The notes beneath the pieces are model-generated. The model was not told where the DNA came from. It searched no databases and saw only the letters and a program-made list of their open reading frames with translations. A DNA stretch of 64,000 nucleotides. Source: Patescibacteria group bacterium. GTDB taxonomy: Bacteria > Patescibacteriota > Minisyncoccia > 2-02-FULL-40-12. This document shows, in pieces, positions 4,006 to 33,772 of the stretch (position 1 is its first letter; each line of letters opens with the position of its first letter). Made by a program: the position numbers and the translations under genes. Location: NCBI GenBank assembly GCA_038063995.1, contig JBBTUA010000007.1, forward strand, positions 5,219 to 69,218. The letters are read 5' to 3'.

Positions 4006-4008
4006 TTT

Positions 4009-5385: not shown

Positions 5386-5412
5386 ATAAAAGCCCGCCTA
5401 ATAAGGCGGGCG
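5386..5412 (-). terminator. terminator hairpin serving hsp20 (minus strand)
   Basis: GCCCGCC TAATAA GGCGGGC; on the minus strand it is followed by TTTTATTTGTTT. Confidence 0.5.
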
Positions 5413-5502
5413 TTATATCCGGGCCCCAAGCAGCCCTTCACTACTCGCTTGGTCGTTGGGATGAAGAACATTATTATTTAATTTATTTCTTGATCCCGCG
5501 GA

Positions 5503-5535
5503 CGGCCCCAAGCGAGAAGTGAGGGGCCGATTTTA
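5503..5535 (+). terminator. terminator hairpin after tRNA-Leu
   Basis: GGCCCC..GGGGCC stem followed by GATTTTATTTTG. Confidence 0.4.
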
Positions 5536-5874: not shown

Positions 5875-5925
5875 TTTGATAGTATAATATCATTTTCCTC
5901 TAATCAATTGCCAAGTCAATACAAA

Positions 5926-10024: not shown

Positions 10025-10096
10025 GGCCCCATCGTCTAACAGTTAGGACAGCTTTCTTTCAAGAAGCAAATAGGGGTGCGACTCCCCTTGGGGCTG
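10025..10096 (+). tRNA. tRNA-Glu (anticodon TTC), atypical D and T loops
   Basis: acceptor GGCCCCA/TGGGGCT, anticodon loop CTTTCAA; D loop lacks GG and T loop reads TGCGACT (G at position 55). Confidence 0.55.
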
Positions 10097-10097
10097 C

Positions 10098-13123: not shown

Positions 13124-13474
13124 GGGGGTGCAAGTTTCGACGGAACTTTCAAAAGAAAAATTGCTGGTTGTGCATGGCTGTAATCACATAAAAAGTTCAG
13201 CCAACAAATAGGTGCAAACTATAAACCTGCACTTGCTTACGCCTAAAAGCGCGTAGGCCGCTTTATCTGCAATGTTCTCGGTAGCAGAATAGAGCGTCAG
13301 ACACCGAGAGAACAAACAGGAGTTTATGCCTAATAAGCTCTTGAGCACCTTTTATTCAGTTAGGCGCTCGGAGATTTTGTCGGCTTTTGACTCCGGGCTT
13401 AAACAAACCGGCTACATCAGCTAAACATTTTTCTGGCGATTTTCCCGGACGGGGGTCCAATCTCCCCACCTCCA
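13124..13474 (+). ncRNA. ssrA: tmRNA (SsrA)
   Basis: immediately 3' of smpB; tRNA-like ends GGGGGTG/CACCTCC with G3-U70 pair; T arm GGGGGTCCAATCTCCCC; internal tag-peptide frame ending ..ANYKPALAYA-TAA (stop at 13243-13245). Confidence 0.8.
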
Positions 13475-13952
13475 CTTCTACGCTAAAGCTTCGAAGTGCA
13501 CGGCACTGAGAAGGTTTACAAAACTCCAAAATTATTTGGAGTTTTGTTTTTGCGTAGAAGTGCCCTGCGTAGCTTTATGCGAAGCAGGGCTTACCTTATA
13601 ATTCAGTTGTGTATTACATCTATATCCTCCAAAGTAAAAAAGACAAAAGTTTCTATACTGGTTTTACAGAGGACCTAAATAAAAGAATCAAAGACCATAA
13701 CTGGTATACTGCTTCGCTAAAGCTACGCAGTACAAGTGAAGTCAGATACACCAGAAGCAAAGCACCATTTGAGTTAGTCTGGTATTGTGCTTTCAAGAGC
13801 AAAAAGAAAGCTCTTGATTTTGAAAAATACTTGAAACAAGGTTCGGGCTTTGCTTTTGCAAGAAAAAGATTAACCTAAAGCGGCGAGGCGCTCGTGCTGC
13901 GTAGCGAAGCCACTTCGCAGAGCAGCGAGAGGCAAAGCCAATCTCCCCACCT
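13475..13952 (+). mobile_element. small islet integrated at the tmRNA 3' end, bounded by a 15-nt direct repeat
   Basis: CCAATCTCCCCACCT occurs at 13457-13471 (inside tmRNA) and again at 13938-13952; islet carries a GIY-YIG gene and four copies of the cgaag/cttcg hairpin repeat. Confidence 0.5.
13609..13878 (+). CDS. GIY-YIG domain protein (COG2827/YhbQ-like small endonuclease), with an in-frame repeat insertion
   Basis: MYYIYILQSKKDKSFYTGFTEDLNKRIKDHN is a GIY-YIG signature; segment WYTASLKLRSTSE is encoded by a repeat copy at 13708-13729. Confidence 0.65.
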   Translation: MYYIYILQSKKDKSFYTGFTEDLNKRIKDHNWYTASLKLRSTSEVRYTRSKAPFELVWYCAFKSKKKALDFEKYLKQGSGFAFARKRLT

Positions 13953-18232: not shown

Positions 18233-19894
18233 GTGATATATTTTAAACTAATGAAGAAGCAAATTCAAGAATTTCTTAGAAAAGAGCACCCGGATATTGA
18301 TTTTGCCGTTTCCTACCCGCCTGAAGGCCTTGGCGACTACTCAACCAACATCGCCTTTCTACTTGCCCGCCAAAGCCTTGGCGAAGGCGGGTTGGCTAAA
18401 AAAACCGGCGGAAATCCGCAAAAACTTGCCTTGAGCATAGTCGAAGGGTTAAGAAACGAATTCAAAAATCAATTTGAAAAAATCGAAATCGCAAAAAACG
18501 GGTTTATAAATTTTTATCTATCTAAAAAGTATTTATTGGATAATCTTTCCGAGGTTCTGAAATTTCCGGATATTGGAAAGAGCAAGACGGTTATAGTTGA
18601 ATATTCCCAGCCCAATATTGCCAAAGTGATGCATGTCGGGCATCTCCGTTCAACGGTTCTGGGCGACGCCCTGGCCAATATCTATGAAGCTTTAGGTTAT
18701 AAAGTTATTCGCTGGAATTATTTGGGCGATTGGGGAACTCAATTCGGGAAATTGATTTCGGCTTATAAGATGTGGGGCAAAGAAGAAGAAGTTAAGACAA
18801 ATCCAATTGAAACTTTAAATGATCTCTATGTAAGATTCCACGACGAATTGAAAAACCGTCCGGAACTGGAAGAAAAAGGGAGAGAAGAATTTAAGAAGCT
18901 CGAAGAAGGAGATGAAGAAAACAGAAAATTATGGAAGTGGTTTAAAAATGAGTCTTTGAAAGAATTTGAAAAGATTTACAGGATTTTAGGAGTTAAATTC
19001 GATACTTATACAGGTGAGAGTTCTTTTGAGAAGGATTTAAAACCTTTAGTCGAAGAATTGCGAAATAAAGGAATAGCCAAAGAGAGCCAAGGCGCTGTTA
19101 TTATTTCTTTGGATCAATTCAATTTGCTTCCAGCCTTGATTCAAAGATCTGACGGAGCAAGCTTGTATCTGACTCGCGATATTGCCGCCTTGAAATACCG
19201 AATCAAAGAATACAAGCCGGAAAAAATTCTTTATGTCGTCGGAAACGAGCAGTCGCTTCATTTTGATCAGCTTAAGGCGATTGCTAAAATCTCGGGCTTA
19301 GATGAAACAGAAATCAGTCATATTAAATTTGGGCTTATTCTCGGAAAAGATAAAAAGAAATTGTCGAGCAGAGAGGGCGGAGCCGTGCCAATAAAAGAAT
19401 TGATAGATAAAGCGGTCGAACTTTCCGGAAAAGCTGTCGGGATCAGCGCGTTAAAATATTTTATTTTAAAAGAGCACCGCTTGAGCGATATAGTTTTTGA
19501 CTGGGATAGAATCCTTAATTTGAAAGGAGACAGCGGTCCTTATCTTCAATATACTTACGCCCGTTTGGCCAGCATTAAGAGTAAAGCCGGGACCATCTCG
19601 AAATCTAAAAATTTAGAATCACTGAATAAAGAAATTGATGTTTCCCTAATGAAAAAAATGATTAAATTTCCCGAGATTCTTACCCTGACCGTCGAGAATA
19701 ACCTTACGAATATCTTAACTCTGTACCTTTATGAGCTTTGCAATTTGATCAATAGATTTTATGAATCGGTTCCAGTCTTAAAGGAAGATGATGAGAAAAT
19801 TAGAAATGCCCGGCTGGGGCTGGTCAGTTTAATGATTCAAATTTTAGAAAAAGGTTTTAATCTTTTAGGAATCGAGGCCCCGGAGAGGATTTAA
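18233..19894 (+). CDS. argS: arginine--tRNA ligase
   Basis: HVGHLRS HIGH region; ArgRS add-1 N-domain and DALR anticodon-binding domain. Confidence 0.9.
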   Translation: MIYFKLMKKQIQEFLRKEHPDIDFAVSYPPEGLGDYSTNIAFLLARQSLGEGGLAKKTGGNPQKLALSIVEGLRNEFKNQFEKIEIAKNGFINFYLSKKYLLDNLSEVLKFPDIGKSKTVIVEYSQPNIAKVMHVGHLRSTVLGDALANIYEALGYKVIRWNYLGDWGTQFGKLISAYKMWGKEEEVKTNPIETLNDLYVRFHDELKNRPELEEKGREEFKKLEEGDEENRKLWKWFKNESLKEFEKIYRILGVKFDTYTGESSFEKDLKPLVEELRNKGIAKESQGAVIISLDQFNLLPALIQRSDGASLYLTRDIAALKYRIKEYKPEKILYVVGNEQSLHFDQLKAIAKISGLDETEISHIKFGLILGKDKKKLSSREGGAVPIKELIDKAVELSGKAVGISALKYFILKEHRLSDIVFDWDRILNLKGDSGPYLQYTYARLASIKSKAGTISKSKNLESLNKEIDVSLMKKMIKFPEILTLTVENNLTNILTLYLYELCNLINRFYESVPVLKEDDEKIRNARLGLVSLMIQILEKGFNLLGIEAPERI

Positions 19895-20287
19895 AAATAC
19901 AAAAACAAATAAAGCTGCTCCGAGAATATCCATCAGCAGATCATTTATTGTATCGTCCAGATTGCCCATACAGCAGATTACTCTGTATTTATTGTAAAAA
20001 TAATCTCCAAATAATTTAGTGCCTAAATATTCCGAGAATTCCCAAATTACTCCGATAAAAACCGTTATGCTCACTAAAATGAGAACCTTTTTAAGTCTTG
20101 GACTGCCGGGATTGCCGATTTTCAAATGTTTGAGGTAGCCCGCAAAAAACATAGCTACAAAAAAACCGCCGGAGAAATGAAGAATCGGGTCAACATTAAA
20201 AGCCTTGAAGATATAATCAACATCCGCAACCATAAAAAGGATATTGATCAAGAAAATCAGAGCCAAAAATAAAATTGCTGTTTTCAT
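19865..20287 (-). CDS. small membrane protein (VanZ-like?)
   Basis: 140 aa, four TM; weak VanZ-like pattern. Confidence 0.4.
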   Translation of the reverse strand: MKTAILFLALIFLINILFMVADVDYIFKAFNVDPILHFSGGFFVAMFFAGYLKHLKIGNPGSPRLKKVLILVSITVFIGVIWEFSEYLGTKLFGDYFYNKYRVICCMGNLDDTINDLLMDILGAALFVFVFLNPLRGLDS

Positions 20288-20313
20288 AGAAATATACTAA
20301 TAATTATAATATT

Positions 20314-23300
20314 GTGTCTGAATCTAATCTAGCTAAAATCGAAGAAAAAATCCAGAAATTCTGGGAAGCTAACAATATCCCAGAAAAAATCTTCGGCCAC
20401 AGAAAAGGAGGGAAGAAATTCGTTTTTTACGAAGGGCCGCCGACGGCAAACGGAATGCCCCATCTAGGGCATTTTGAAACCCGGGCCTTCAAAGATCTTT
20501 TCATCCGTTTTAAAACTATGGCTGGTTTTTTTGTCTCGCGAAAAGCCGGGTGGGACACCCATGGTTTGCCGGTTGAAATAGAAGTTGAAAAAGAACTTGG
20601 TTTGAAATCAAAAAAAGAAATCGAAGAATACGGGATTTCTAAATTCAACAAAAAAGCAAAAGAATCGGTCTGGCGCTACAAGGCCGAGTGGGAAAAATTT
20701 TCAAAGCGGATGGGTTTTTGGCTTGATTTTGAAAATCCTTACATTACTTATGACAATGATTATATCGAAACTCTCTGGCATATCATACAAAAGTTCGACA
20801 AAAAAAAGTTTTTGTATAAAGGCCATAAAGTTTTGCCTTGGTGTCCGCGCTGCGGCACGGCTTTGTCGAGTCATGAGGTGGCGTTAGGTTATGAAAATAT
20901 CACTGAAGATTCGGTTTATGTCAAGTTTAGATTAAAACCGGACCCAAAAATCGGTGGTTTTGAAACAGATGATAAAACTTATATTTTAGCCTGGACTACA
21001 ACTCCCTGGACTCTTCCCGGAAATGTCGCTTTGGCTGTCGGTGAAAAAATCGATTATGCAGTGGTTCGTAAAGACAATGAAAACTTTATTTTGGCGAAGG
21101 ATTTGGCAGGTAAAGTTCTAAATAAACCGTATCAGATTGAAAAAGAAATAACAGGTAAAGACTTGGTTGGTTTGGAATACGAGCCGTTATTTAAAATCAA
21201 AGAACTTCAGTCGGAGAAATCATACAAAATCTATCCGGCTGATTTTGTTTCGACCGAAGAAGGAACAGGCGTAGTTCATACCGCAGTGATGTATGGAGAA
21301 GACGATTATCAGTTGGGCGAAAAGATCGGCCTGCCAAAATATCATACCGTTGATAAGGAAGGGAAATTTACCAACGATGTTCCGGAACTTGCGGAAAAGT
21401 TTGTAAAAGACGCTGATAAAGATATTATTTATTATCTCAAAGATAAAAATCTTTTACTCAAAGTTGAATCCTATTCTCACGATTATCCTTTTTGCTGGCG
21501 GTGTAAGACCCCGCTTCTTTATTACGCGACTGATTCCTGGTTTGTTAAGACCACAGCCGTTAAAAAAAATCTTATTGCCAACAACAAAAAAATAAACTGG
21601 GTTCCCTCTTATATTAAAGAGGGCCGTTTCGGACAATGGCTTAATGAAGTGAAAGACTGGGCGTTTTCGCGGGACCGCTATTGGGGGACACCCTTGCCGG
21701 TTTGGGAATGCAAGGAATGCCGCAATTATTCGGTTATAGGCTCATTGGAAGAACTTGAAAAATATCGTTATCGGAAGCCAAACAAGTATTTTATTCTGCG
21801 TCACGGTGAAAGCCAGAAAAATAATTTTGGAGGCAAAGAAATAAACAGCACTAAATTAGAAACCGATAAATACGATTTGACCGAAAGAGGAACTGATCAG
21901 GCGGGAAAAGTCGTCGGGAAATTAAAAAAAGAAAAGATCGATTTAATTTTTGCTTCTCCTTTTTTGAGGACAAAAAGAACAGCCCAGATAATCGGAGAAG
22001 AATTGGGGATCGAGATGAAAATAGATTATCGTTTGAAGGAAATGGACCATGGCAGTGTATGCGAAGGCAGAGATTATTATGCTTGTATTCCCAGGGAAGA
22101 ATATCCGAATACAGATTTTAACACCAAATTCGGAATGGATGGTGAGAGCCGGAATGAAGTCAGAAAGAGAGTTTTATCTTTCATCAGAGAAACAGGCGAT
22201 CAATACGAAGGCAAGAATATTTTGATTGTAAGTCATGGTGATCCTTTGTGGCTGATGGAAGGTATGTCAAAAAATTTCAGCGAACAGGAGCTCTTCTTGG
22301 CAAAAAAGAATCAGATTCTGGATATAAAAGATGGGGCAATGATTCTGCTTAAGCCCGGAGAAATGAGAATATTGGAGTTTGATAACTTCCCGCGCGACGA
22401 ATTCGGGAATCTGGATCTGCATCGGCCTTACATAGATGAGGTTTTATTGAAATGTCCAAAGTGCGGCGGCGAGATGAAAAGAATTCCGGAGGTGACGGAT
22501 GTCTGGTTTGATTCCGGAGCAATGCCTTTTGCGCAACTGCACTATCCTTTTGAAAATAAAAAAGAATTCAAAGAAAATTTCCCGGCTGATTTTATTACCG
22601 AAGGAGTGGATCAAACTCGCGGCTGGTTTTATACATTATTGGCTGTTTCCACGCTTTTAGATTTTGGCCCGCCTTACAAAAATGTCATTTCTTTGGGTTT
22701 TGCTTTGGATAAAAACGGCAGAAAGATGTCCAAATCGATCGGTAACGTGATCACCCCTAATTACGTAATTGATAAATTCGGTTCTGATGTCGGGCGGTGG
22801 TGGTTTTATAAAGTTAATCAAGCCGGGGAGTCTAAAAGTTTTAAAGAAGAAGAGCTTAAACAAACAGAAAACGGGTTTGTCCGGGTTTTGATGAATTCTT
22901 TAAGGTTTTGGGAACTGTATAAAAATGATGAGCAGTCAGGGGTTAACTTTCACAAATTAGATAAAAAAAATAATCTGTCGGTACTCGATAGCTGGCTTTT
23001 ATCAAAATTCAACAATTTGATTAAGTCGGTTACAGATTCTCTAGATAATTATGATTCAACGTCTTCCAGCCGGGAGATTGAAAAGTTTGTTATCGAAGAT
23101 TTATCAAATTGGTGGATCAGAAGAAGCCGTGAAAAGTTCCAGTCAGAGGGAAATTCAGCTCAAAAAGATTTGTTAAGATTCATTCTTTTAGAGGCGGCAA
23201 AACTTATTGCGCCATTTGTTCCGTTTTTGGCTGAATATCTGTATCAAGAGATAAGCATTCACCCCGTTAGAAGTCGCGCTCGCGCTGAAGGCGCGAGTCC

Positions 23301-23895
23301 TGAAGGGACCGCTGGCGCGGCTATTTCTAACGGGGTTCATTTTCACAATTGGCCGAAAGAAAACAAAAAACTGACTGATAAAAAGCTCGAGGAAGAAATG
23401 GAGCTAGTCAGAAAGATTGCGAGTCTTGGATTGGCGGCCAGGAAAGAAGCAGGAGTCAAAGTGAGGCAGCCCCTGGCTAAATTAGAATTTAGAACACAGA
23501 ATATAGAATTTAGTAAAGAATTGCTTGATTTAATCAAAGAAGAAGTGAATGTAAAAGAAGTAAAGTTTGAAAAAGGCGGAAAAGAAGAAGTTATTTTGGA
23601 TACTAAAATTACGCCGGCTTTGCGGCAGGAGGGCTGGGTGAGAGAATTTATAAGGATGATACAAGACGCAAGAAAAGATGCCGGCTATGAATACGATCAA
23701 AAAGTCAGAACTTTTTGGTTTTCTGAAGATAGAGAATTAAAGGAGGCGATTTTGCGGGAAAACGATTTCATAAAACAAAAAACAGTTTTAAAAGAGTTGA
23801 ATGAATCAAGGCATAACTCCAAATTTGCTTATGATGTTGAAAAAGAAGAAGAGATCGAATCAGGTAGAAAAATTTGGCTCGGATTAATCAAATGA
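20314..23895 (+). CDS. ileS: isoleucine--tRNA ligase carrying an embedded histidine-phosphatase (PGAM-superfamily) domain
   Basis: HIGH-type region (PPTANGMPHLGH), KMSKS, zinc knuckles (WCPRCGT; CPKCGG); about 190 aa inserted between ..SLEELEKYR and DLHRPYIDE containing RHGES .. SHGD (about 21780-22360). Confidence 0.9.
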   Translation: MSESNLAKIEEKIQKFWEANNIPEKIFGHRKGGKKFVFYEGPPTANGMPHLGHFETRAFKDLFIRFKTMAGFFVSRKAGWDTHGLPVEIEVEKELGLKSKKEIEEYGISKFNKKAKESVWRYKAEWEKFSKRMGFWLDFENPYITYDNDYIETLWHIIQKFDKKKFLYKGHKVLPWCPRCGTALSSHEVALGYENITEDSVYVKFRLKPDPKIGGFETDDKTYILAWTTTPWTLPGNVALAVGEKIDYAVVRKDNENFILAKDLAGKVLNKPYQIEKEITGKDLVGLEYEPLFKIKELQSEKSYKIYPADFVSTEEGTGVVHTAVMYGEDDYQLGEKIGLPKYHTVDKEGKFTNDVPELAEKFVKDADKDIIYYLKDKNLLLKVESYSHDYPFCWRCKTPLLYYATDSWFVKTTAVKKNLIANNKKINWVPSYIKEGRFGQWLNEVKDWAFSRDRYWGTPLPVWECKECRNYSVIGSLEELEKYRYRKPNKYFILRHGESQKNNFGGKEINSTKLETDKYDLTERGTDQAGKVVGKLKKEKIDLIFASPFLRTKRTAQIIGEELGIEMKIDYRLKEMDHGSVCEGRDYYACIPREEYPNTDFNTKFGMDGESRNEVRKRVLSFIRETGDQYEGKNILIVSHGDPLWLMEGMSKNFSEQELFLAKKNQILDIKDGAMILLKPGEMRILEFDNFPRDEFGNLDLHRPYIDEVLLKCPKCGGEMKRIPEVTDVWFDSGAMPFAQLHYPFENKKEFKENFPADFITEGVDQTRGWFYTLLAVSTLLDFGPPYKNVISLGFALDKNGRKMSKSIGNVITPNYVIDKFGSDVGRWWFYKVNQAGESKSFKEEELKQTENGFVRVLMNSLRFWELYKNDEQSGVNFHKLDKKNNLSVLDSWLLSKFNNLIKSVTDSLDNYDSTSSSREIEKFVIEDLSNWWIRRSREKFQSEGNSAQKDLLRFILLEAAKLIAPFVPFLAEYLYQEISIHPVRSRARAEGASPEGTAGAAISNGVHFHNWPKENKKLTDKKLEEEMELVRKIASLGLAARKEAGVKVRQPLAKLEFRTQNIEFSKELLDLIKEEVNVKEVKFEKGGKEEVILDTKITPALRQEGWVREFIRMIQDARKDAGYEYDQKVRTFWFSEDRELKEAILRENDFIKQKTVLKELNESRHNSKFAYDVEKEEEIESGRKIWLGLIK

Positions 23896-23909
23896 TATAT
23901 TTAACCTAA

Positions 23910-25607
23910 ATGGAAAGAAGGCTAATCATTAGTTTGTTTATTTTATTGATTCTGGGAACAGTGATTTTTTTGCTTTATCAGGCCAGATTCAAGGAAGGCC
24001 AGGTTTTTTTGAAAATAGAAGTACAGGAAGAAGCGGCAAGCGGCGAAGAAATAGAATACAAAGTTATCGTTGAAAACAGAAATAATTTTAATTTAACCGA
24101 CTCGAAATTATCATTCTTTTATCCTGAAGATTCCACTCCTTTAAGGGACGGCGAGCCCTTAGATTCTTTACTGGCCAATCTTGATTTGGGGACTTTTGAA
24201 CAAAGAAGCGAAAAAGAGTTTTTATTTAAAGCGATAATCACGGGAGAGAAAGGCGAGAATAAAAAAGCAAAAGCTGTCTTAACCTACTCCCCTTCAAACT
24301 TTCGTTCAGTTTTTCAAAAAACTGAAGAAGCGATAACAACTATTTCCAGAGTTTCTGTTTCTGTCAGTCTAAGCGCGCCGCCCAATATTTTATCCGGCCA
24401 AACGGTCACCGTGTTTGTCGATTTAAGGAATGAGACAGAAAAAGATTTACAGGATCTGCAGCTTGCACTTTCGTATCCTGAAGGCTTCATTTTTAAAAAA
24501 GCGATGCCTTCACCGAATGAAAGAAATGGTATCTTTAACATTGCTTCAATTAAGGCTGGCGAGGGCGTCAGAGTAAGTGTTGAAGGCGAAATTTCAGGAT
24601 TTGAAAAAGAAGGCAAAACATTTTCTGCCGTATTAAGAAAGAAAACAGGCGATCAATTCTTTGATCTGCAAAAATCAGAGGTGCTGCTCACTATTTCTTC
24701 TCCGCTTATTAGAAGCGAAGTTTTAATAAATGATTCAAAAAGTTTTGCAGCTAAGGCGGGAGATCGGTTAAAATATACAATAAAATTTTCCAACGATTCC
24801 AACTATAATTTTTCAGCCCTTGAATTAAGAGCGGCTTTGGACGGCCAAATGTTTGACTTCGCCACATTAAAAACCAATGACGGGTTTTTTGACCAGAATT
24901 CCCGGACTATTTTGTGGAATGCCGCCGCTTCAGATGATTTAGGAAATTTGCCGCCTCGAGGCAGTGGAGAAGTTTCTTTTGAGGTAAATGTAAAGCAGGA
25001 TTTCCCAAAAACTTTCGGCAAAAGCTATTCGTTAAAAGTCACCTCTTTAATTCAGATTTCTTCTGTCCCGCCGGATTTTGATTTAGATAAGGTTACTTCG
25101 TCTGCCGAGATGATGGTAAAAGTTGGATCAAAGGTCAGTTTTACAGCAAAGGCTTTTTACAATGATCAGGCGGTTCAAAATTCCGGGCCGGTTCCTCCCC
25201 GGGTTGGCCAAAAAACGACATATACGATACATTGGAAGATAGTTAATGAAGGGAATGATTTGACGAATGCAAGAGTAGAAAGTTTTTTGCCGCCGGGAGT
25301 CAGCTGGGAAAATGAATTCAAGCTTACGCCGTCTCAGTCTCAAATAAGATATGATCCGAGCTTAGGCAGAGTAAGCTGGTTGATTACCACGGTTCCGGCC
25401 GGGACAGGCGCAGTTTCCAATGTTTTTGAAGCTATTTTCCAAATAGGAATTACGCCAAGCATAAATCAAGTCGGCCAGGCTCCGGAAATAACTAAAGAAT
25501 CCAGTTTCGAGGCAACAGATAATTTTACCAAAGAAAAAATTAATTTAAGCCAGCCCGCGATCAATACGCAGACAGTAAGCGATTCGCCGGGAACAGTGGC
25601 AAACTAG
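23910..25607 (+). CDS. hypothetical membrane-anchored large extracytoplasmic protein
   Basis: 565 aa; N-terminal TM then beta-rich repetitive domains; no catalytic motif recognised. Confidence 0.55.
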   Translation: MERRLIISLFILLILGTVIFLLYQARFKEGQVFLKIEVQEEAASGEEIEYKVIVENRNNFNLTDSKLSFFYPEDSTPLRDGEPLDSLLANLDLGTFEQRSEKEFLFKAIITGEKGENKKAKAVLTYSPSNFRSVFQKTEEAITTISRVSVSVSLSAPPNILSGQTVTVFVDLRNETEKDLQDLQLALSYPEGFIFKKAMPSPNERNGIFNIASIKAGEGVRVSVEGEISGFEKEGKTFSAVLRKKTGDQFFDLQKSEVLLTISSPLIRSEVLINDSKSFAAKAGDRLKYTIKFSNDSNYNFSALELRAALDGQMFDFATLKTNDGFFDQNSRTILWNAAASDDLGNLPPRGSGEVSFEVNVKQDFPKTFGKSYSLKVTSLIQISSVPPDFDLDKVTSSAEMMVKVGSKVSFTAKAFYNDQAVQNSGPVPPRVGQKTTYTIHWKIVNEGNDLTNARVESFLPPGVSWENEFKLTPSQSQIRYDPSLGRVSWLITTVPAGTGAVSNVFEAIFQIGITPSINQVGQAPEITKESSFEATDNFTKEKINLSQPAINTQTVSDSPGTVAN

Positions 25608-25633
25608 AATACAGAATTTAGAATTTAGAGTAG
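25605..25633. repeat. AGAATATAGAA-family repeat
   Basis: TAGAATACAGAATTTAGAATTTAGAG between hypothetical gene and glyQS. Confidence 0.6.
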
Positions 25634-25635
25634 TT

Positions 25636-26919
25636 ATGGAAGATAAGCTGAATAAAATAGTTTCGCTTGCCAAAAGGCGCGGTTTTATTTTTCCGGGTTC
25701 GGAAATTTACGGGGGGTTAAGCGGTTTTTATGATTTTGGCCCGCTTGGGGCGGAACTGAAATTTAATATCAAGCAGGAATGGTGGATTTCGGTTGTAAGG
25801 GCCCGGGATGATGTAGTCGGTTTAAGCGCCGCTATAATAATGAATCCAAAAGTCTGGCAGGCCTCCGGCCATCTTGATGGCGGCTTTACTGATGTTTTGG
25901 TTGAATGCAAGAAATGCCACCAGAGATTTAAGGCAGATGACTTCGTTCCGGTCTGCGAGAATTGCGGAAGCAAAGAATTTACTGAGCCGCGTCGTTTTAA
26001 CATTATGTTTAAAACTTTTGTCGGACCCGCTGAAGATTCTGCGGCCGTTGTTTATTTGAGACCCGAAACTACTGCCGGGATTATGGTGAATTTTAAAAAT
26101 ATCATTGATACAATGCGGGTTAAAATTCCTTTTGGAATCGCCCAAATCGGAAAAGCTTTTAGAAACGAGATTAATCCAAAAGATTACATTTTTAGAACCC
26201 GGGAGTTCGAACAGATGGAGCTCGAATATTTTGTTAAACCCGGTGAAGACGGGAACGCTTTTACTGAATGGGTAAATAGGAGACTTAGCTGGTATGATGA
26301 TTTAGGATTGAAAAATGTTCGCAAAAGAGAACAGTCGAAAGAAGAAAGAGCTCACTATTCGAGCGCGACAGTTGATATAGAGTATGAATTTCCTTTCGGC
26401 TGGAAGGAAATTGAGGGCATTGCCAATCGGACCGATTTTGATTTGAAAACCCACTCTAAACATTCAGGAAAAGATCTTTCCTACACCGACGATTCCGGCG
26501 AAAACTTTATTCCTTATGTTATTGAGCCTTCAGCCGGCGTTGATCGGCTGGCCTTGGCTTTTCTATGTGATGCTTATTACGAAGATAAGGATCGCATTGT
26601 TTTAAAACTCCATCCGAAATTAGCGCCGTATAAAGTTGCTGTGTTTCCTCTTTTGGCCAACAAGCCGGAATTGGTTAAAAAAGCCAGACAAGTTTATAAA
26701 GATTTAAAAACGACAGGGTTAAATGTTGCCTGGGATGATCGGGGAAATATCGGCAAAAGATATTATTCGCAGGATGAGATTGGCACGCCTTGGTGTGTAA
26801 CAATCGATCATCAAACTTTGGAAGATGATACAGTTACAGTTAGAGATCGGGACACGACTAAACAGGAGAGAGTATTAATTAGCGACTTGAAGAAATATTT
26901 CGAAGAAAAATTAAGATGA
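25636..26919 (+). CDS. glyQS: glycine--tRNA ligase (dimeric type)
   Basis: class II motifs (GxAxRNEI; anticodon-binding C-domain); N-terminus RGFIFPGSEIYGGLSGFYDFGPLG. Confidence 0.85.
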   Translation: MEDKLNKIVSLAKRRGFIFPGSEIYGGLSGFYDFGPLGAELKFNIKQEWWISVVRARDDVVGLSAAIIMNPKVWQASGHLDGGFTDVLVECKKCHQRFKADDFVPVCENCGSKEFTEPRRFNIMFKTFVGPAEDSAAVVYLRPETTAGIMVNFKNIIDTMRVKIPFGIAQIGKAFRNEINPKDYIFRTREFEQMELEYFVKPGEDGNAFTEWVNRRLSWYDDLGLKNVRKREQSKEERAHYSSATVDIEYEFPFGWKEIEGIANRTDFDLKTHSKHSGKDLSYTDDSGENFIPYVIEPSAGVDRLALAFLCDAYYEDKDRIVLKLHPKLAPYKVAVFPLLANKPELVKKARQVYKDLKTTGLNVAWDDRGNIGKRYYSQDEIGTPWCVTIDHQTLEDDTVTVRDRDTTKQERVLISDLKKYFEEKLR

Positions 26920-28193
26920 ACCAAGATTTTCTTCTTCATCAATACGAGAACGGTTTGCGATTAGTAGTTGTGCCGATGAAAAGCACCAAAACGGTAACGG
27001 TTTTGGTTTTGGTCGGCACCGGCTCACGCTACGAAACCAAGGAAATAAACGGCATCTCCCATTTTTTGGAGCATATGATGTTTAAAGGCACGCAAAAGAG
27101 GCCGCAGTCCCTGGACATCAGCCAGGAGCTTGATGCAATCGGCGCTGAATACAATGCCTTTACCTCAAAAGAATACACGGGTTATTATGCTAAGGCTTCA
27201 AGCGATAATTTAAATCTAGTCACCGACGTCATTTCTGATATTTTTTTGAACTCAAAGCTTGACGGGGCCGAAATCGAAAAGGAGCGCGGCGTGATAATTG
27301 AAGAAATAAATATGTATTTAGATGATCCGCCCCGCCATGTCGGCGATTTGTTTGAAAAGCTTCTCTACGGGGACCAGCCAGTCGGATGGAACGTGGCCGG
27401 AGAAAAAGAAATCATAAAGAAATTGGCCCGCGATAATTTTGTCGATTATTTTAATTCGCATTACGTGGCTAAAGACACTATTATTGCTGTGGCCGGGAAT
27501 GTTGATAAGGAGCAAGTCAGAAACGAGCTAGTTCCGAAATTTTTCAAGGATTCAAGAGTGGGCCAAAAGCTGGATCGGCTGGCAGTTTTGGAATCGCAAG
27601 ATAAGCCCGAAGTTTTACTTGAGCATAAGAAGACTGACCAGACCCATTTTATATTAGGCGTTCGGGCTTTTGATATGTTTTCGCCTAAAAGCGAAGCGGC
27701 GCAAGTTTTATCAGTGATTCTTGGCGGCGGGATGAGCTCACGTTTATTTATCGAAATCAGGGAAAAGCACGGCCTCTCTTATTATGTAAGGTCTGGTTTT
27801 GACGCCTATACTGACCATGGCTATTTTGCCAGTTCATCGGGGGTAGATAATAACAGGGTGGAAAAAGCGGTATCCGTAATTTTGAATGAATACAGGAAAC
27901 TTAAAGATGAATCAGTATCTGAAAAAGAATTGAAAAAAGCCAAGGAATTCATAAGAGGCCGGTTGGCCATTGCCCTTGAACAATCTGACGATTTGGCCGG
28001 TTTTTACGCTAATCAGTGGCTTTTAAAAAACCAGACTTTGACACCTGAAGAGAAATTAGATAAAATAATGAAAGTCAGGGCTGAAGATATCCAAGAAGTT
28101 GCAAGCGAAATCTTCCGTCCGGAAAAACTTAACCTTGCCTTGATCGGGCCGTTTGAAGATAAAGATAAATTCGAGAAACTTTTAGAAGTTTAA
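26916..28193 (+). CDS. M16-family zinc peptidase (insulinase-like)
   Basis: inverted zinc motif HFLEHMMFKGT. Confidence 0.8.
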   Translation: MNQDFLLHQYENGLRLVVVPMKSTKTVTVLVLVGTGSRYETKEINGISHFLEHMMFKGTQKRPQSLDISQELDAIGAEYNAFTSKEYTGYYAKASSDNLNLVTDVISDIFLNSKLDGAEIEKERGVIIEEINMYLDDPPRHVGDLFEKLLYGDQPVGWNVAGEKEIIKKLARDNFVDYFNSHYVAKDTIIAVAGNVDKEQVRNELVPKFFKDSRVGQKLDRLAVLESQDKPEVLLEHKKTDQTHFILGVRAFDMFSPKSEAAQVLSVILGGGMSSRLFIEIREKHGLSYYVRSGFDAYTDHGYFASSSGVDNNRVEKAVSVILNEYRKLKDESVSEKELKKAKEFIRGRLAIALEQSDDLAGFYANQWLLKNQTLTPEEKLDKIMKVRAEDIQEVASEIFRPEKLNLALIGPFEDKDKFEKLLEV

Positions 28194-28203
28194 ATATTTA
28201 AAT

Positions 28204-29256
28204 ATGCCTAGCGACGAGCGCCAAATGTTTGATATTTCAACCGCCACTATTTTTAGATTCGTTTTAATCGTCTTGTTTTTTATTTTGCTTTATCAAGTGA
28301 GGCAGGTCATTTTTATTCTGCTTTTTGCCATTGTTGTCGCCTCGGCAGTCAATCCTTTTGCAAAGTGGCTTGACCGCAAAAGAATTCCCCGGATTCTCGG
28401 AATTTTAGTTTTATACCTTACGATATTTCTTCTGGCTGTTTTCATACTGACTCTGGCCATTCCATTTTTTTCGCAGGAGGTCGGAGAACTTACCGAAGAT
28501 CTTCCTAAATTTATCGCTCAAATAACCGCTTCGTTGGAAGCGATTAAAAGCGAGACCGGAAGTTTTGATATAATCAGCCAGCTTCAGGGAATTTTGGATA
28601 GTTTGTCCCAGTTTTTGCAGGAGTCAAGCCAATCCGCAGTCGGGCTGATCATAAATATTTTCGGAGGAATAATTTCTTTCGCCGGAGTCATAGTGATATC
28701 TTTTTATCTTTCGGTGATGAGAGGAGGGATTGATCATTTTCTTAAATCAGTTGTTCCGGACAAGTACGAAAAATACACTTTGGATTTGTGGCATCGTTCT
28801 GAAAGAAATCTTGGCCGTTGGTTCCAGGCCCAATTGCTTTTGTCTTTGATCGTCGGCTTGATGACTTTTGTCGCTCTGTCGATATTAGGCGTCAAGTTTG
28901 CTCTTGTTTTAGCTGGTTTGATTATGGTTTTGGAACTTGTGCCAAATGTCGGTCCGGTTTTGGCGGCTATTCCGGCTGTTGGTTTGGCTTTTTTTCAGTC
29001 TCCTTCTTTGGGTTTTTGGACGCTTGGAGTTTATATCCTTATTCAACAGGTTGAGAATCATGTTTTGACCCCTTTGATTATGGGAAAAAGTCTTGGAATA
29101 AATCCTGTAGCTGTCATAATCGCTTTGCTTGTCGGTTTCAATCTCGCCGGAATCATAGGAATGATTTTGGCCGTGCCTGTGGCCACGGTAGTTGTTGAGT
29201 GGTTTAACGATATTGCCGAGAAGAAAGAAAAAGCCAGAGCGGTCGGCGCCACTTAG
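28204..29256 (+). CDS. AI-2E family transporter (PerM/UPF0118)
   Basis: 8 TM; family-typical soluble insert between TM helices. Confidence 0.7.
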   Translation: MPSDERQMFDISTATIFRFVLIVLFFILLYQVRQVIFILLFAIVVASAVNPFAKWLDRKRIPRILGILVLYLTIFLLAVFILTLAIPFFSQEVGELTEDLPKFIAQITASLEAIKSETGSFDIISQLQGILDSLSQFLQESSQSAVGLIINIFGGIISFAGVIVISFYLSVMRGGIDHFLKSVVPDKYEKYTLDLWHRSERNLGRWFQAQLLLSLIVGLMTFVALSILGVKFALVLAGLIMVLELVPNVGPVLAAIPAVGLAFFQSPSLGFWTLGVYILIQQVENHVLTPLIMGKSLGINPVAVIIALLVGFNLAGIIGMILAVPVATVVVEWFNDIAEKKEKARAVGAT

Positions 29257-29275
29257 AACTTAAAGCAAAAATATT

Positions 29276-29947
29276 TTGGCTATTTTATATATAGTTGCCA
29301 CTCCGATCGGCAACTTAAAAGATGCAACTTTTCGCGCAATCGAAACCTTGAAAGAGGTTGATTTTATTTTGGCTGAAGACACGCGTGAAACTTTTAAACT
29401 TTTAAATTTTTATAGCATAAAGAAACCGCTTGTTTCTTATTTTCAGCATTCAAAAATAAGCAAAGTCGAATATATCTTGAATTTATTGAAGCAAGGCAAG
29501 AACTTGGCTTTAGTTTCAGATGCCGGAACGCCCGGGATAAATGATCCGGGAGGAAAGTTAATCAGCGAGGTTATTAAACGTTTTGGAGATTCGGTTCAGA
29601 TTGTTCCTGTGCCTGGGCCAAATGCCGCCATAACAGCTTTAAGCATATCCGGTTTTAATGTCGATAAATTTTTATTTCTGGGTTATCCGCCTCATAAAAA
29701 AGGCAGAAAAAAGTTTTTTGTGGAAATTGCAGAATCAAAATACCCGGTCGTATTTTACGAGTCGGTCCATCGGATCCTAAAGACTTTGAAAGAATTATCG
29801 AATTTTGAAAATCTCAAAAACAGAGATATTATCGTCTGCCGCGAATTGACCAAAAAATTCGAAACTATATACCGCGGAAAAATTTCTGAAATTCTACCTC
29901 AAATTGAGAAAGAAAATCTCGGGGAGTTTGTAGTTATTATCAGCTAG
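29276..29947 (+). CDS. rsmI: 16S rRNA (cytidine1402-2'-O)-methyltransferase RsmI
   Basis: ILYIVATPIGNLKDATFRAIETLKEVDFILAEDTRET tetrapyrrole-methylase fold. Confidence 0.85.
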   Translation: MAILYIVATPIGNLKDATFRAIETLKEVDFILAEDTRETFKLLNFYSIKKPLVSYFQHSKISKVEYILNLLKQGKNLALVSDAGTPGINDPGGKLISEVIKRFGDSVQIVPVPGPNAAITALSISGFNVDKFLFLGYPPHKKGRKKFFVEIAESKYPVVFYESVHRILKTLKELSNFENLKNRDIIVCRELTKKFETIYRGKISEILPQIEKENLGEFVVIIS

Positions 29948-29978
29948 ATTTTTTGACATAAATTGATATTATTGGTTA

Positions 29979-31463
29979 ATGAGCAAGTTTTACATTACGA
30001 CAGCCATAGATTATACCAATGATCGGCCTCATTTAGGCCATGCTTTGGAAAAAGTTCAGGCTGATGTCTTGGCTCGGTATCATCGTTTGAGGGGCGATGA
30101 TGTTTTTTTCTTGACTGGGACAGATGAGCACGGCGCCAAGATTGTTAAAGCGGCTAAGTTAGCCGGCAAAGAACCAAAAGAGTTTGTTGATGAAATTTCA
30201 GAGTATTTCAAAAATTTATTGAAAGAGTTGAATATCTCAAATGACGATTTTATTAGAACAACAGATCAGAAAAGGCACTGGCCGGCAGTCCAGAAATTTT
30301 GGAAAAAACTAAAAGACAACGGTGATTTATATAAGGCAAAATACGAAGGCCTTTACTGTATCGGGCACGAGGCTTTTATAAAAAAAAGCGAATTAAAGAA
30401 CGGTCTTTGCCCAGACCATCAAATTGAGCCGGAAAAAATCAAAGAGGAGAACTATTTTTTTAAGCTTTCTAAATATAAAGATAAAATTAGAGATTTGATT
30501 TCGGAAGATAAAATAAAAATCCAGCCGCAATTTAGAAAAGACGAAGTTTTAAATCTGCTTAAAGAGTCGGAAGACGTTAGTTTTTCTAGGCCGAGAAAAG
30601 ACTTGGAATGGGGCATTCCTGTTCCGGATGATTCGGAACACACCATTTATGTCTGGACAGAAGCTCTCCAAAATTATATCTCCGCCATAAATTACGGCGA
30701 GGAATCGTTTCAGTTAAAAGATCTATGGCCGGCCGATATTCATTTGATTGGAAAAGATATTTTGCGTTTTCACGCCATTATCTGGCCGGCGATGCTGCTA
30801 GCAGCCGGACTAGAAACACCGAAGTCAATTTATGTACACGGGTTCATTACTATTGATGGTCAGAAAATGTCAAAAACAATCGGTAATGTGATTGACCCGT
30901 TTCAATTGGTTAAAAGATACGGAGTTGATCCAGTTCGATATTATTTATTGCGGGAGATTCCATCTTATGAAGACGGCGATTTTTCAATTCAAAAATTTGA
31001 GGCACGCTATAATGCCGATTTGGCAAATAATTTAGGCAATCTGGTGTCGCGGGTGGTCGCATTGATCGAAAAATCTTTTAACAGCAGTTTTGCTTATCAC
31101 CGGAAATTCGTGTCCAAAGAGATCGATGATAAAGTTATCGAAACATGGAAAAAATATAATCAGAACATAAGCGAATTCAAGCTTCATATCGCTCTGGAAA
31201 GTATTTTTTCTCTGATTGATTTTGCAAATTCGTATGTTGACGAACATAAGCCTTGGTCTTTGGCTGATAATCCGGAACATCTAAATGAAGTAATAACTAA
31301 TTTAATTGTGATACTATTGAATATCGCTTGGCTTTTGAAGCCGTTTCTACCGCAGACAAGCGACAGGATTTTTGAAATTATCGGAGCAGATAAAGAAGGC
31401 AAATCTTGGGAAGAGAAGCCGTTTGTGGTGAAGCCCAAGATTTTATTTCCGAAAATCCAATGA
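29979..31463 (+). CDS. metG: methionine--tRNA ligase
   Basis: DRPHLGHALEKVQADV HIGH region; KMSKTIGNVIDP. Confidence 0.9.
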   Translation: MSKFYITTAIDYTNDRPHLGHALEKVQADVLARYHRLRGDDVFFLTGTDEHGAKIVKAAKLAGKEPKEFVDEISEYFKNLLKELNISNDDFIRTTDQKRHWPAVQKFWKKLKDNGDLYKAKYEGLYCIGHEAFIKKSELKNGLCPDHQIEPEKIKEENYFFKLSKYKDKIRDLISEDKIKIQPQFRKDEVLNLLKESEDVSFSRPRKDLEWGIPVPDDSEHTIYVWTEALQNYISAINYGEESFQLKDLWPADIHLIGKDILRFHAIIWPAMLLAAGLETPKSIYVHGFITIDGQKMSKTIGNVIDPFQLVKRYGVDPVRYYLLREIPSYEDGDFSIQKFEARYNADLANNLGNLVSRVVALIEKSFNSSFAYHRKFVSKEIDDKVIETWKKYNQNISEFKLHIALESIFSLIDFANSYVDEHKPWSLADNPEHLNEVITNLIVILLNIAWLLKPFLPQTSDRIFEIIGADKEGKSWEEKPFVVKPKILFPKIQ

Positions 31464-33772
31464 TTAAATACAATCCGCAAAAAATCGAAAAAAAGTGGCA
31501 GAAGGAGTGGGAAAAGAAGAAGCTTTATCAAGCAAAAGATAAAGTTAAAGGCAAAAAGAACTTTTATCATTTAACAATGTTTCCTTATCCTTCCGGTGAT
31601 CTTCATATGGGCCATTGGTACAATTATGCGCCTTCAGATGTATATGCTCGCTTCAAACGGATGCAAGGTCTGAATGTGATGTCGCCTATCGGCTTTGACG
31701 CATTTGGTCTACCCGCCGAAAACGCAGCCATAAACAGGAATCTTGATCCGAAAATTTGGACTTACAGCAATATAAAGTCAATGAAGAAACAGCTTGATTC
31801 AATCGGCGTTTCTTTTGATTGGTCTCGAGAGGTGATTACCGCCGAGCCCGATTATTACAAATGGACCCAATGGATTTTTTTGAAACTATACGAAGTCGGT
31901 TTGGCGAAAAAAGAAAAAGTTTTAGCTAATTGGTGCCCGCACTGCAAGACTATTTTGGCTAACGAGCAGGTTCAGGACGGCCGCTGCGAAAGATGCGATA
32001 CTGTTGTGGAACAAAAACTGCTTGAGCAGTGGTTTTTTAAAATTACTGATTATGCTCAAAAACTTTTGGACGGCCTTGAAAAAATCGATTGGCCGGAAAC
32101 TACTAAAATTTTGCAAAGAAATTGGATTGGCCGGTCTGAAGGGGCGCAGATAGAATTTAGAATTGAGAATTCAGAATATAGAATTAAGGTTTTTACTACA
32201 AGGCCTGACACGATATTCGGGGCAACTTTTATGGTTTTGGCGCCTGAACACGAGTTGGTTAAAAAAATTACCAAAGATGCCCAATTGGGTCAGGTGAATA
32301 ATTACTTAGAGAAAACGAAAAAGAAAACAGAATTGGAGCGGATAGCTGAAGTCAAAGAAAAGACCGGAGTTTTTACCGGCGCCTACGCTTTTAATCCCGC
32401 AACCAAAGAAAAGATACCGATTTGGATTTCTGATTTTGTTTTGCCTCATTACGGAACAGGCGCGATTATGGCGGTTCCAGCTTACGATGAGAGAGATTTG
32501 GAATTTGCCGAAAAATTCGGCCTGCCAGTAAGAAAAATTGATCTGGACGATAAAATTCTAAGCGAACTTGAAAAAAGGGGATTAGCTGAAAGAAAGACAA
32601 GTTATCGGCTTCATGATTGGATAATCAGTCGCCAGCGCTACTGGGGAGCGCCGATTCCGATGATTTATTGCCAGAAGTGCGGAATTATACCTGTCCGGGA
32701 AAAGGATTTGCCGGTTTTGTTGCCCAAAATTAAGGATTATAAGCCGTCCGGCACCGGCGAGTCGCCATTAGCCGAAGTAAAGGACTGGGTCAATGTAAAA
32801 TGCTGGAAATGCTCCGGGCCGGCCCGCCGCGAAACCGATACGATGGATACATTTGTTGATTCGGCCTGGTATTTTTTGCGCTACGCCGACCCCAAAAATA
32901 AAAAAGAGTTTGTTTCAAAAGAAAAATTAAAGGACTGGCTTCCGGTAGATATTTATATTGGCGGTCAGGAACATGCGACCAAACATTTGCTTTACGCCAG
33001 ATTCATAACCAAAGTTTTGTACAACTATGGTTATTTAAATTTTAACGAGCCATTCGTAAAAATGAGGCACCAAGGATTAATTTTGGGTCCTGATGGCAAT
33101 AAAATGTCCAAATCAAGAGGCAATGTGATTGACCCAGACGAAATAGTTAAGAAATTCGGCTCTGATTCGGTGCGTATGTATCTTTGTTTTATGGGCCCTT
33201 ATGAAAACGGCGGGCTTTGGGATCCGAAAGCTATTGTCGGGGTATTCAGATTTCTAAATAGAGTTTGGAATCTGATAAATTCCAAATTTCAAAATTTCAA
33301 AACCCAAAATAAAGAATTGGATAAAATTTTCAATAAAGCGATGAAAAAAATCGGGGAAGATATTGAAAATTTAAGATTCAATACGGCGGTCAGCGAATTG
33401 ATGAAGCTATTAAATGAAATAGAAAACAAAGAGCTGGCCAAAGATCAAATTAAAATATTTTTGAAATTGCTGGCGCCGTTCGCACCTCATCTGACCGAAG
33501 AGCTTTGGCGGGAAGTTCTGAAAAACAAAAAATCAATCCATCTGGAAAAATGGCCTGAATACGATTCGAAATTGATTGAAGAAGAAACGATTTATTTGAT
33601 CGTTCAGATCAACGGCCGGACTCGCGATATTATAAAAGTTCCCCGAGATTTGAATGAATCTCGCGTCCGCGAGCTTGCTCTTTCTTCGGAAAAAATAAAA
33701 AAATATACAGCCGGAAAAGAAATCATCAAATTCATCTATATTTCCAATAAATTGGCTAATATAGTCCTTTAG
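31460..33772 (+). CDS. leuS: leucine--tRNA ligase
   Basis: PYPSGDLHMGHWYNY; KMSKSRGNVIDP; start set at Met-19 (MIKYNPQKIEKKWQ), ATGA-overlapped with metG. Confidence 0.9.
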   Translation: MIKYNPQKIEKKWQKEWEKKKLYQAKDKVKGKKNFYHLTMFPYPSGDLHMGHWYNYAPSDVYARFKRMQGLNVMSPIGFDAFGLPAENAAINRNLDPKIWTYSNIKSMKKQLDSIGVSFDWSREVITAEPDYYKWTQWIFLKLYEVGLAKKEKVLANWCPHCKTILANEQVQDGRCERCDTVVEQKLLEQWFFKITDYAQKLLDGLEKIDWPETTKILQRNWIGRSEGAQIEFRIENSEYRIKVFTTRPDTIFGATFMVLAPEHELVKKITKDAQLGQVNNYLEKTKKKTELERIAEVKEKTGVFTGAYAFNPATKEKIPIWISDFVLPHYGTGAIMAVPAYDERDLEFAEKFGLPVRKIDLDDKILSELEKRGLAERKTSYRLHDWIISRQRYWGAPIPMIYCQKCGIIPVREKDLPVLLPKIKDYKPSGTGESPLAEVKDWVNVKCWKCSGPARRETDTMDTFVDSAWYFLRYADPKNKKEFVSKEKLKDWLPVDIYIGGQEHATKHLLYARFITKVLYNYGYLNFNEPFVKMRHQGLILGPDGNKMSKSRGNVIDPDEIVKKFGSDSVRMYLCFMGPYENGGLWDPKAIVGVFRFLNRVWNLINSKFQNFKTQNKELDKIFNKAMKKIGEDIENLRFNTAVSELMKLLNEIENKELAKDQIKIFLKLLAPFAPHLTEELWREVLKNKKSIHLEKWPEYDSKLIEEETIYLIVQINGRTRDIIKVPRDLNESRVRELALSSEKIKKYTAGKEIIKFIYISNKLANIVL

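Follow-up and report, generated by a model that had tools for sequence, protein, structure and literature searches.

Architecture of the ileS locus

The window analyzed here is a stretch of 64,000 nt from a Patescibacteria group bacterium (assembly GCA_038063995.1, contig JBBTUA010000007.1, positions 5,219–69,218). It carries the gene ileS, whose product, by sequence an isoleucyl-tRNA synthetase (IleRS) of type 2, houses an additional domain of the histidine phosphatase superfamily within its catalytic domain. The gene begins with a GTG codon and encodes 1193 aa in an uninterrupted frame. An initial annotation of this DNA had placed ileS at 20314–23895 with a length of 1193 aa and had described HIGH, KMSKS, and both zinc knuckles, all of which is borne out by the open reading frame (ORF) and by the motif positions. 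The features of the window are collected in Table 1.

Table 1. Features of the window, numbered in nucleotides from its first letter.
Feature	Position	Strand	Basis
argS, 553 aa, conserved upstream neighbor of ileS	18233–19894	+	Arg_tRNA_synt_N, tRNA-synt_1d, and DALR_1 on identical contig
ileS, predicted type-2 isoleucyl-tRNA synthetase with embedded phosphatase domain	20314–23895	+	ORF list; TIGR00392; 8c8u/1ile matches
IleRS N-terminal part, aa 1–485: first Rossmann half, HIGH (nt 20461–20472), CP1, first CxxC of knuckle 2	20314–21768	+	aligns with 8c8u 12–478
CKEC (C466, C469), first half of the insert-hosting zinc knuckle	21709–21720	+	motif; homologs
Histidine-phosphatase insert, aa 486–698, ~213 aa	21769–22407	+	gap in 8c8u alignment
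Pfam His_Phos_1 (PF00300) match, aa 493–647	21790–22254	+	E = 1.6e-29, 103.4 bits
R496–H497 of RHG, predicted phospho-accepting His	21799–21804	+	120/120 homologs
R552, second phosphate-binding Arg (SPFLR motif)	21967–21969	+	120/120 homologs
E576, predicted general acid	22039–22041	+	invariant in 116 homologs; aligns with EIDHG Glu of PspA 4ij5
H641 of SHGDP, second catalytic His	22234–22236	+	120/120 homologs
IleRS C-terminal part, aa 699–1193: CPKC, KMSKS, anticodon-binding domain, DUF5915	22408–23892	+	aligns with 8c8u 485–853
CPKC, second CxxC, aa 714–717	22453–22464	+	motif
KMSKS, aa 804–808	22723–22737	+	motif
tmRNA (tag ANYKPALAYA)	13124–13475
tRNA-Leu (tag)	5294–5376
tRNA-Glu (ttc)	10025–10097
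tRNA-Leu (caa)	41791–41874
tRNA-Pro (ggg)	46043–46114

The ORF matches the ileS equivalog model TIGR00392 with 881.9 bits (cutoff 621.4). The HIGH motif of class I synthetases is present as HLGH at residues 50–53, and H53 shows no variation in 116 homologs, as is also the case for K804, S806, and K807 of KMSKS. Two zinc knuckles are formed by C177/C180 together with C394/C397 and by C466/C469 together with C714/C717; of 120 homologs, all have C466 and 111 have C469. The CP1 editing domain spans residues 191–392 and matches the isolated editing domain of T. thermophilus (1wk8, E = 4.9e-37). The motif WTTTPWTLPGN is conserved in 116 homologs: W227–T230, W232–L234, G236, and N237 do not vary, and P231 and P235 reach at least 90%. 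The C-terminal region contains the Pfam domains Anticodon_1 (residues 892–1055) and DUF5915 (residues 1056–1177). The closest solved structures are of type 2, namely IleRS2 of Priestia megaterium (8c8u, E = 4.7e-249) and the T. thermophilus enzyme (1ile, ~1e-243), and structures of type 1 match far less well (8c9e, ~1e-112; 1ffy, ~1e-108). These matches, together with the presence of the C-terminal DUF5915, place the ORF with type-2 rather than type-1 IleRS, and it is predicted to be a complete and editing-competent enzyme that aminoacylates tRNA-Ile.

An AlphaFold2 model of the full protein, built with 116 homologs, has a mean predicted local distance difference test (pLDDT) value of 90.8 and a predicted template modeling (pTM) score of 0.85, and as a whole it superposes on IleRS2 (8c8v) with a Foldseek template modeling (TM) score of 0.84. 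The only residues with a pLDDT below 50 are 986–988 and 992–1004. They belong to an Ala/Gly/Arg-rich stretch, HPVRSRARAEGASPEGTAGAAISNG, in the helical domain (residues 983–1006, window 23260–23331), which falls opposite a gap in 8c8u, has a local GC fraction of up to 0.45, and looks like a lineage-specific disordered loop.

In the alignment with 8c8u, residues 8–485 of the query correspond to residues 12–478 and residues 699–1089 to residues 485–853. The insert between them takes the place of ~6 residues of 8c8u and is located at the tip of the second zinc-knuckle loop, between C466-x2-C469 and C714-x2-C717, in the catalytic domain and ~100 residues ahead of KMSKS. A domain of ~190 aa at 21780–22360, inserted in place of a short linker without interruption of the frame, had been proposed in the initial annotation; the insertion and the open frame stand, whereas the borders have to be moved outward to those given by the structural alignment. 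The GC fraction runs continuously across both borders (0.36–0.43), and the length of the insert is held at 198–219 aa in 120 homologs.

Identity and fold of the phosphatase domain

The match of the insert to His_Phos_1 lies far above the gathering threshold of this profile (21.7 bits), and the superfamily proposed in the initial annotation is thereby confirmed by profile search. RHGES starts at residue 496 (nt 21799), SPFLRT at residue 548, and SHGD at residue 640 (nt 22231), all where they had been placed before. R496 and H497 are invariant not only in the 120 homologs but also in further alignments that include free-standing relatives of the insert; at G498 of the RHG motif, a minority of the 120 have A or S. 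R552 is equally invariant among the free-standing relatives, and residue 576 is Glu or Asp in that set. R619 is also without variation (116–120 homologs), and E611 nearly so. When 48 free-standing relatives are aligned with the insert, R496, H497, R552, R619, and H641 are invariant and E576 and E611 are not. R552, H641, and E576 pair with counterpart residues of the phosphoserine phosphatase PspA. Because the full catalytic set is intact, phosphatase activity is predicted, and the insert is most likely an active phosphomonoesterase that operates via a phospho-histidine intermediate.

Structure prediction agrees with a separate folded domain. In the model of the full protein, the blocks of the insert have pLDDT values of 83–97, and the insert modeled alone (pLDDT 85.9) adopts the canonical branch-1 histidine-phosphatase fold, for which Foldseek returns a probability of 1.00 to many solved branch-1 members. 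The nearest folds are PspA (4ij5/4ij6), 9mmh, PhoE (1h2e), 4qih, and CobC (6nru), with true mutases ranked lower. Compared with the short phosphatases, the insert shows 20–27% identity, TM scores of 0.65–0.72, and Foldseek E-values of 1e-10 to 1e-12. Hence, it resembles short phosphatases of the PhoE/PspA/CobC kind rather than a true phosphoglycerate mutase. The scores against the curated NCBIfam models all remain below the respective cutoffs: 81.6 bits for the archaeal short cofactor-dependent phosphoglycerate mutase dPGM_arch (NF038349, the top phosphatase-type match; cutoff 225), 49.2 bits for GpmB (NF002901; cutoff 261), 68.7 bits for PspA (cutoff 350), 68.1 bits for CobC (cutoff 162.9), and 28.5 bits for SixA (cutoff 74.5). 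Because no curated equivalog cutoff is reached, the insert is assigned to branch 1 of the superfamily but outside every characterized subfamily, as far as profiles and predicted fold can tell.

With dPGM_arch as the top match and an RHGES..N motif like that of cofactor-dependent phosphoglycerate mutase (dPGM), one could take the insert for the glycolytic dPGM of the organism. The scores for NF038349 and GpmB fall far short of their cutoffs, however, and the fold ranking favors phosphatases over mutases. Together with the gene content of related lineages described below, this makes a glycolytic role very unlikely, and we reject it.

Some features distinguish the embedded domain from its free-standing relatives. 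The family as a whole is marked by SPFLRT and SHGDP, and a loop with the pattern LExDKYxLT is specific to the embedded form, as are the conserved residues N490, D518, Y520, L522, and P693, of which Y520 is present in 27 of 27 sampled embedded inserts. These residues could mark an interface and, together with the position of the insert in the catalytic domain near KMSKS, would suit a non-catalytic role, in which the domain senses a phosphorylated metabolite as ligand or braces the structure and thereby tunes IleRS. Against this stands the conservation of the catalytic residues, including the nucleophile and the acid, across hundreds of sequences, which is unusual for pseudo-enzymes, and a purely sensory or structural domain is improbable. 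A degenerate protein (P0157, described below), in which RHG has become RAG, is the exception.

Distribution of the embedded form

All of the 120 closest database homologs (50–100% identity) combine PF00300 with IleRS domains, and the insert occupies the same site in each of them. They come from Parcubacteria, Yanofskybacteria, Paceibacterota, and other Patescibacteria. With a single conserved peptide of the insert as query and one genome per species, 520 loci encoding a relative of the insert were found; the taxon labels of some of these metagenome-assembled genome records (uncultured Candidatus Saccharibacteria, Acutalibacteraceae, Binatia) are given as they stand in the records and may be erroneous. 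Of the 80 best genome loci, 78 encode the N-terminal part, the phosphatase, and the C-terminal part without a break in a single frame, with the phosphatase at the same site. The insert is conserved about as well as its flanks in the closest relatives: identities for N-terminal part, insert, and C-terminal part are 76, 69, and 65% in one locus (L001) and 74, 70, and 66% in another (L002). The insert is under purifying selection.

Apart from the unusual architecture itself, nothing speaks for the insert being an artefact or a selfish element, be it an assembly chimera, a pseudogene, or a mobile or intein-like element. The frame is open, the composition is continuous, the catalytic residues are conserved, and the fold is confidently predicted; a Pfam scan of the protein reveals no endonuclease or intein motif. 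Moreover, hundreds of genomes and metagenomes, assembled independently in many studies, have the insert at this very site, and several contigs from separate assemblies encode the identical protein. An assembly artefact, which the initial annotation had named as what would overturn its proposal, is therefore ruled out by the same-site orthologs, and the whole group of such explanations can be dismissed.

A free-standing form next to ileS

Relatives of the insert also exist as separate proteins. An exhaustive search of 1.84 billion cluster representatives (clusters at 50% identity) yielded 540 clusters with relatives at E ≤ 1e-10; among the best 150 of these, 87 are linked to IleRS or valyl-tRNA synthetase (ValRS), 59 are free-standing, and 4 have other architectures. 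The free-standing proteins have ~190–200 aa and are up to 41% identical to the insert. Their genes are mostly located next to ileS. In the 2 of the 80 best genome loci without the embedded form (L055 and L071), a free phosphatase gene ends 1–6 nt before an ileS that lacks the insert; in L055 the order is argS (2313–3989), phosphatase (3986–4573), and ileS (4575–7610, 1011 aa). Four free-standing representatives for which downstream sequence is present (P0124, P0125, P0131, and P0136) are likewise encoded directly upstream of ileS, and argS precedes the phosphatase gene in most of these loci.

The linkage was followed in metagenomes with a scan seeded with 13 closer free-standing sequences, in which the automatic classes were corrected by hand. 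Among 80 loci, 27 have the IleRS-embedded form, and 42 have a free gene directly upstream of ileS; in 4 more, the free gene is within ~1.5 kb of ileS, with one small gene between them. Of the rest, 3 lie at the end of a contig and 4 in other places. Hence, linkage to ileS holds for 46 of the 50 testable free genes. The order argS–phosphatase–ileS is found in L055, L081–L083, and most of L086–L165, and the phosphatase directly precedes ileS in L071 and L084 as well. The window has the same argS–ileS neighborhood as these sister lineages, but with the phosphatase inside ileS instead of before it. The gap in which sister lineages have the free gene is filled herein by an ORF of 140 aa on the reverse strand (19865–20287), which shares 30 nt with the 3' end of argS; it carries DUF2238 in the precomputed annotation and has no Pfam match at E ≤ 1e-4 in our own scan.

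A separate gene in one lineage and an embedded domain in another constitute a Rosetta-stone pattern. The loop that holds the insert is 485 residues into the ileS product, and simple read-through from the upstream gene cannot reach it. A neighbor-joining tree of the phosphatase domain (180 columns, 159 sequences) lacks resolution, with 12 changes of state between the forms; one of IleRS without the insert (868 columns, 114 sequences) has large pure clades, 6 changes, and an ambiguous root.

Other fusion partners

Among the best 150 cluster representatives, the only fusion partners besides IleRS are ValRS, arginyl-tRNA synthetase (ArgRS), and the threonylcarbamoyl-AMP synthase TsaC/Sua5. All four enzymes act in the service of tRNA function and consume ATP to yield an acyl-AMP and pyrophosphate (PPi); two of them, IleRS and ValRS, are the editing synthetases, which spend extra ATP.

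ValRS contains the phosphatase internally in the cluster representative P0243 and in its full-length relative P0271 (1140 aa), where the domain is inserted right after DTWFSSGLWTFSTLGWP and KMSKS is intact. In a dedicated ValRS search, 33 of 121 close relatives carry the phosphatase domain (Magasanikbacteria-like Patescibacteria), mostly inserted after STLGWP and in a few cases elsewhere. This insertion is independent of the one in IleRS. The locus has the conserved order eno–iPGM–iPGM–x–valS–x–tyrS–argS, in which iPGM denotes cofactor-independent phosphoglycerate mutase, and the two tandem iPGM genes adjoin enolase in L169 and L171–L174; in L174, one of the copies is split into two ORFs. Since the genomes with the ValRS insert thus possess two iPGM genes beside enolase, the module is not their glycolytic mutase.

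The remaining partners are joined end to end. ArgRS has a C-terminal phosphatase in P0134, whose gene is followed by recO, with no ileS in its 70-kb contig; the ArgRS–phosphatase fusion is encoded at 5001–7070 of L167/L168. TsaC/Sua5 has a C-terminal phosphatase in P0160; at locus L166 (977–2140), the TsaC–phosphatase gene lies between a P-type ATPase fragment and an unknown gene. Internal insertions into catalytic domains vastly outnumber such end-to-end fusions.

Several proteins contain more than one copy. P0148 (1161 aa) is a ValRS fragment with four mutually divergent tandem phosphatase domains, one of them after a QWF motif and three after RIPVWY. P0126, P0147, and P0228 are IleRS with two phosphatase domains; in P0126 (1419 aa), which has lost the zinc-knuckle cysteines, the second one sits in a loop where the anticodon domain begins. 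P0157/P0274 (1030 aa) is an IleRS-like paralog without recognizable HIGH or CP1, and with RAG in place of RHG in its phosphatase domain it is perhaps a pseudo-enzyme that arose from the fusion. The free gene beside ileS, the recurrence in ValRS, ArgRS, and TsaC, and the likeness to short phosphatases rather than mutases had been missed by the initial annotation.

Proposed role

The free gene between argS and ileS and the copies in ValRS, ArgRS, and TsaC point to a role alongside class Ia synthetases. The reading we prefer is that the insert would be an active accessory phosphohydrolase that works with these enzymes, at a probability of about 0.5. Herein, H497 would be the nucleophile, R496, R552, and H641 would grip the phosphate, and E576 would act as the acid. 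Tethered to the synthetase or docked onto it, the domain would reside near the ATP-consuming aminoacylation site and might strip phosphate from a molecule that holds back the formation of adenylate or the charging of tRNA. As substrate, PPi or a nucleotide-type phosphoester released at this site is put first because no other chemical feature is shared by all partners once TsaC is counted in. The substrates of CobC, HFP, and PhoE are nucleotide-like 5'-phosphates; phosphoanhydride hydrolysis in the superfamily is, to our knowledge, confined to branch 2. A second candidate would be a phosphate that blocks the 3' end of the tRNA, or a phosphorylated synthetase or KMSKS loop; toxins are known that pyrophosphorylate the CCA end or phosphorylate serines of the KMSKS loop in class I synthetases.

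The more specific proposal of a dedicated, synthetase-coupled repair or clearance enzyme, which hydrolyzes PPi at the adenylation site or removes phosphate from the A76 ribose of tRNA or from the KMSKS loop, for example after toxin attack, is a tentative one that we hold to be possible but doubtful. If it is true, it would amount to a previously unknown phosphatase-assisted tRNA charging in Patescibacteria that exists in three interchangeable forms: operon partner, IleRS insert, and ValRS insert. Neither a soluble pyrophosphatase motif nor a second histidine-phosphatase gene was found within the 64-kb window, which is uninformative for the whole genome. According to the literature, the presence of pyrophosphatase varies among bacteria of the Candidate Phyla Radiation (CPR). 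For a link to defense systems, PADLOC gave no match, and PHROGs returned only a generic family of unknown function.

A number of observations weigh against a coupling to aminoacylation, and several of them favor its main rival, a housekeeping small-molecule phosphatase (for phosphoserine, sugar phosphates, or nucleotides) with no mechanistic tie to the synthetases, which would share operon and polypeptide with them only because they are constitutively expressed neighbors with permissive surface loops. First, the nearest characterized relatives are all small-molecule metabolic phosphatases, and those closest in sequence and fold among solved structures are PspA, the riboflavin-pathway phosphatase HFP, PhoE, GpgP, and CobC. 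We know of no branch-1 histidine phosphatase that hydrolyzes PPi or tRNA ends. Second, the insert is dispensable in closely related ValRS: syntenic valS genes encode 1055 aa with the insert (L173/L174) and 867 aa without it (L171), and ValRS with and without the insert show ~81–84% identity in the best local alignment to the common query P0271. The synthetase can thus do without the phosphatase, which is an accessory module subject to rapid gain or loss. Third, the insertion sites vary between the IleRS zinc knuckle, the anticodon-domain loop of P0126, two to three ValRS loops, and C-terminal fusions. The arrays of two to four divergent tandem phosphatases in P0148 and P0126 give the impression of a toolbox rather than of one dedicated function. 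Fourth, the ArgRS and TsaC fusions consist of one protein cluster each and thus lend thin support, and the ArgRS–phosphatase fusion is the product expected from simple read-through between neighboring genes. Insertion into a loop would moreover be easy if the N- and C-terminal strands of the phosphatase are side by side. These strands are adjacent in the phosphatase fold in general, and judging by the strand positions in the model they probably are so here.

This rival nevertheless leaves part of the pattern without explanation. All partner types among the nearest relatives are adenylate-forming translation enzymes, 46 of the 50 free genes keep company with ileS, read-through cannot deliver an upstream gene to a site 485 residues into the next one, and terminal fusions are outnumbered by internal insertions, which occur in two different synthetases. 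A phosphatase that is a mere passenger of the synthetases is thus a serious alternative, though we deem it rather unlikely.

Other features of the window

The stretch from 18233 to 33772 is rich in synthetase genes. Besides argS (18233) and ileS with its phosphatase (20314), it encodes a class II synthetase with an HGTP anticodon domain (25636–26919), metG (29979–31463, 494 aa), and leuS (31406–33772, 788 aa), the last two with short products. Among these synthetases, only IleRS contains the phosphatase. The leuS ORF is listed with a TTG start at 31406 and overlaps the end of metG by 58 nt; its start probably lies further downstream. A protein of 490 aa (35633–37105, forward strand) matches deoxyhypusine synthase (PF01916, E = 4e-64) with residues 190–485, and its ~190 N-terminal residues have no match.

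Comparison with known systems

Aminoacyl-tRNA synthetases are among the most conserved enzymes, and the arrival of a new internal catalytic module is rare. A second, by its residues intact, enzyme within the catalytic domain of IleRS is found here across a large part of Patescibacteria. No model for an IleRS with a phosphatase domain appeared in the NCBIfam scan of the protein, and full-text searches of the literature found no paper on the IleRS–phosphatase architecture, its operon form, or its ValRS counterpart. In the databases, proteins of this architecture are named "isoleucine--tRNA ligase", "class I tRNA ligase family protein", or, in older records, "hypothetical protein", and one ValRS is labeled "valyl-tRNA synthetase/broad specificity phosphatase PhoE". 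For P0001, P0008, P0010, and others, the NCBI name is only "class I tRNA ligase family protein" or "hypothetical protein"; the insert may prevent automatic naming as IleRS. The architecture is real, widespread, and apparently uncharacterized. The series of forms, from operon gene through IleRS and ValRS inserts to ArgRS and TsaC fusions, is a strong and testable hint of a link between a phosphohydrolase and adenylation in minimal genomes; natural pairs with and without the insert exist, expression of the proteins is feasible, and the catalytic residues are obvious targets for mutagenesis. On the practical side, Pfam-based prediction of metabolism could miscount the insert as a glycolytic phosphoglycerate mutase.

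Of the known systems, type-2 IleRS (8c8u/8c8v, 1ile), the eukaryote-like, mupirocin-insensitive class, shares HIGH, KMSKS, CP1, both zinc knuckles, the anticodon domain, and DUF5915 with the protein described herein, and differs in having ~6 residues (8c8u) in place of the 213-residue phosphatase. The exception models MupA and MupB give 831 and 799 bits, below the cutoff of 1900, and therefore no claim on mupirocin resistance is made. The phosphatase part shares its fold, its size of ~200 aa, and the RHG motif, second Arg, Glu, and second His with Hydrogenobacter PspA (4ij5), Bacillus PhoE (1h2e), the alpha-ribazole phosphatase CobC (6nru/6e4b), mycobacterial GpgP (4qih), and HFP (9mmh); unlike the insert, all of these are free-standing and not linked to a synthetase. 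A precedent for a CobC-like phosphatase on one polypeptide with a nucleic-acid enzyme is the RNase H/acid phosphatase of the Rv2228c type (NF005567). This is, however, an end-to-end fusion with RNase H as partner, and the insert reaches 66.7 bits against its cutoff of 326. The acquisition of extra domains by synthetases is well known in general, and for IleRS itself a curator-recognized precedent exists in ileS_w_GNAT (NF040702), in which the synthetase bears an extra catalytic N-acetyltransferase domain; the IleRS of the window scores 356 bits against this model (cutoff 1999) and differs from it in the nature of the extra domain.

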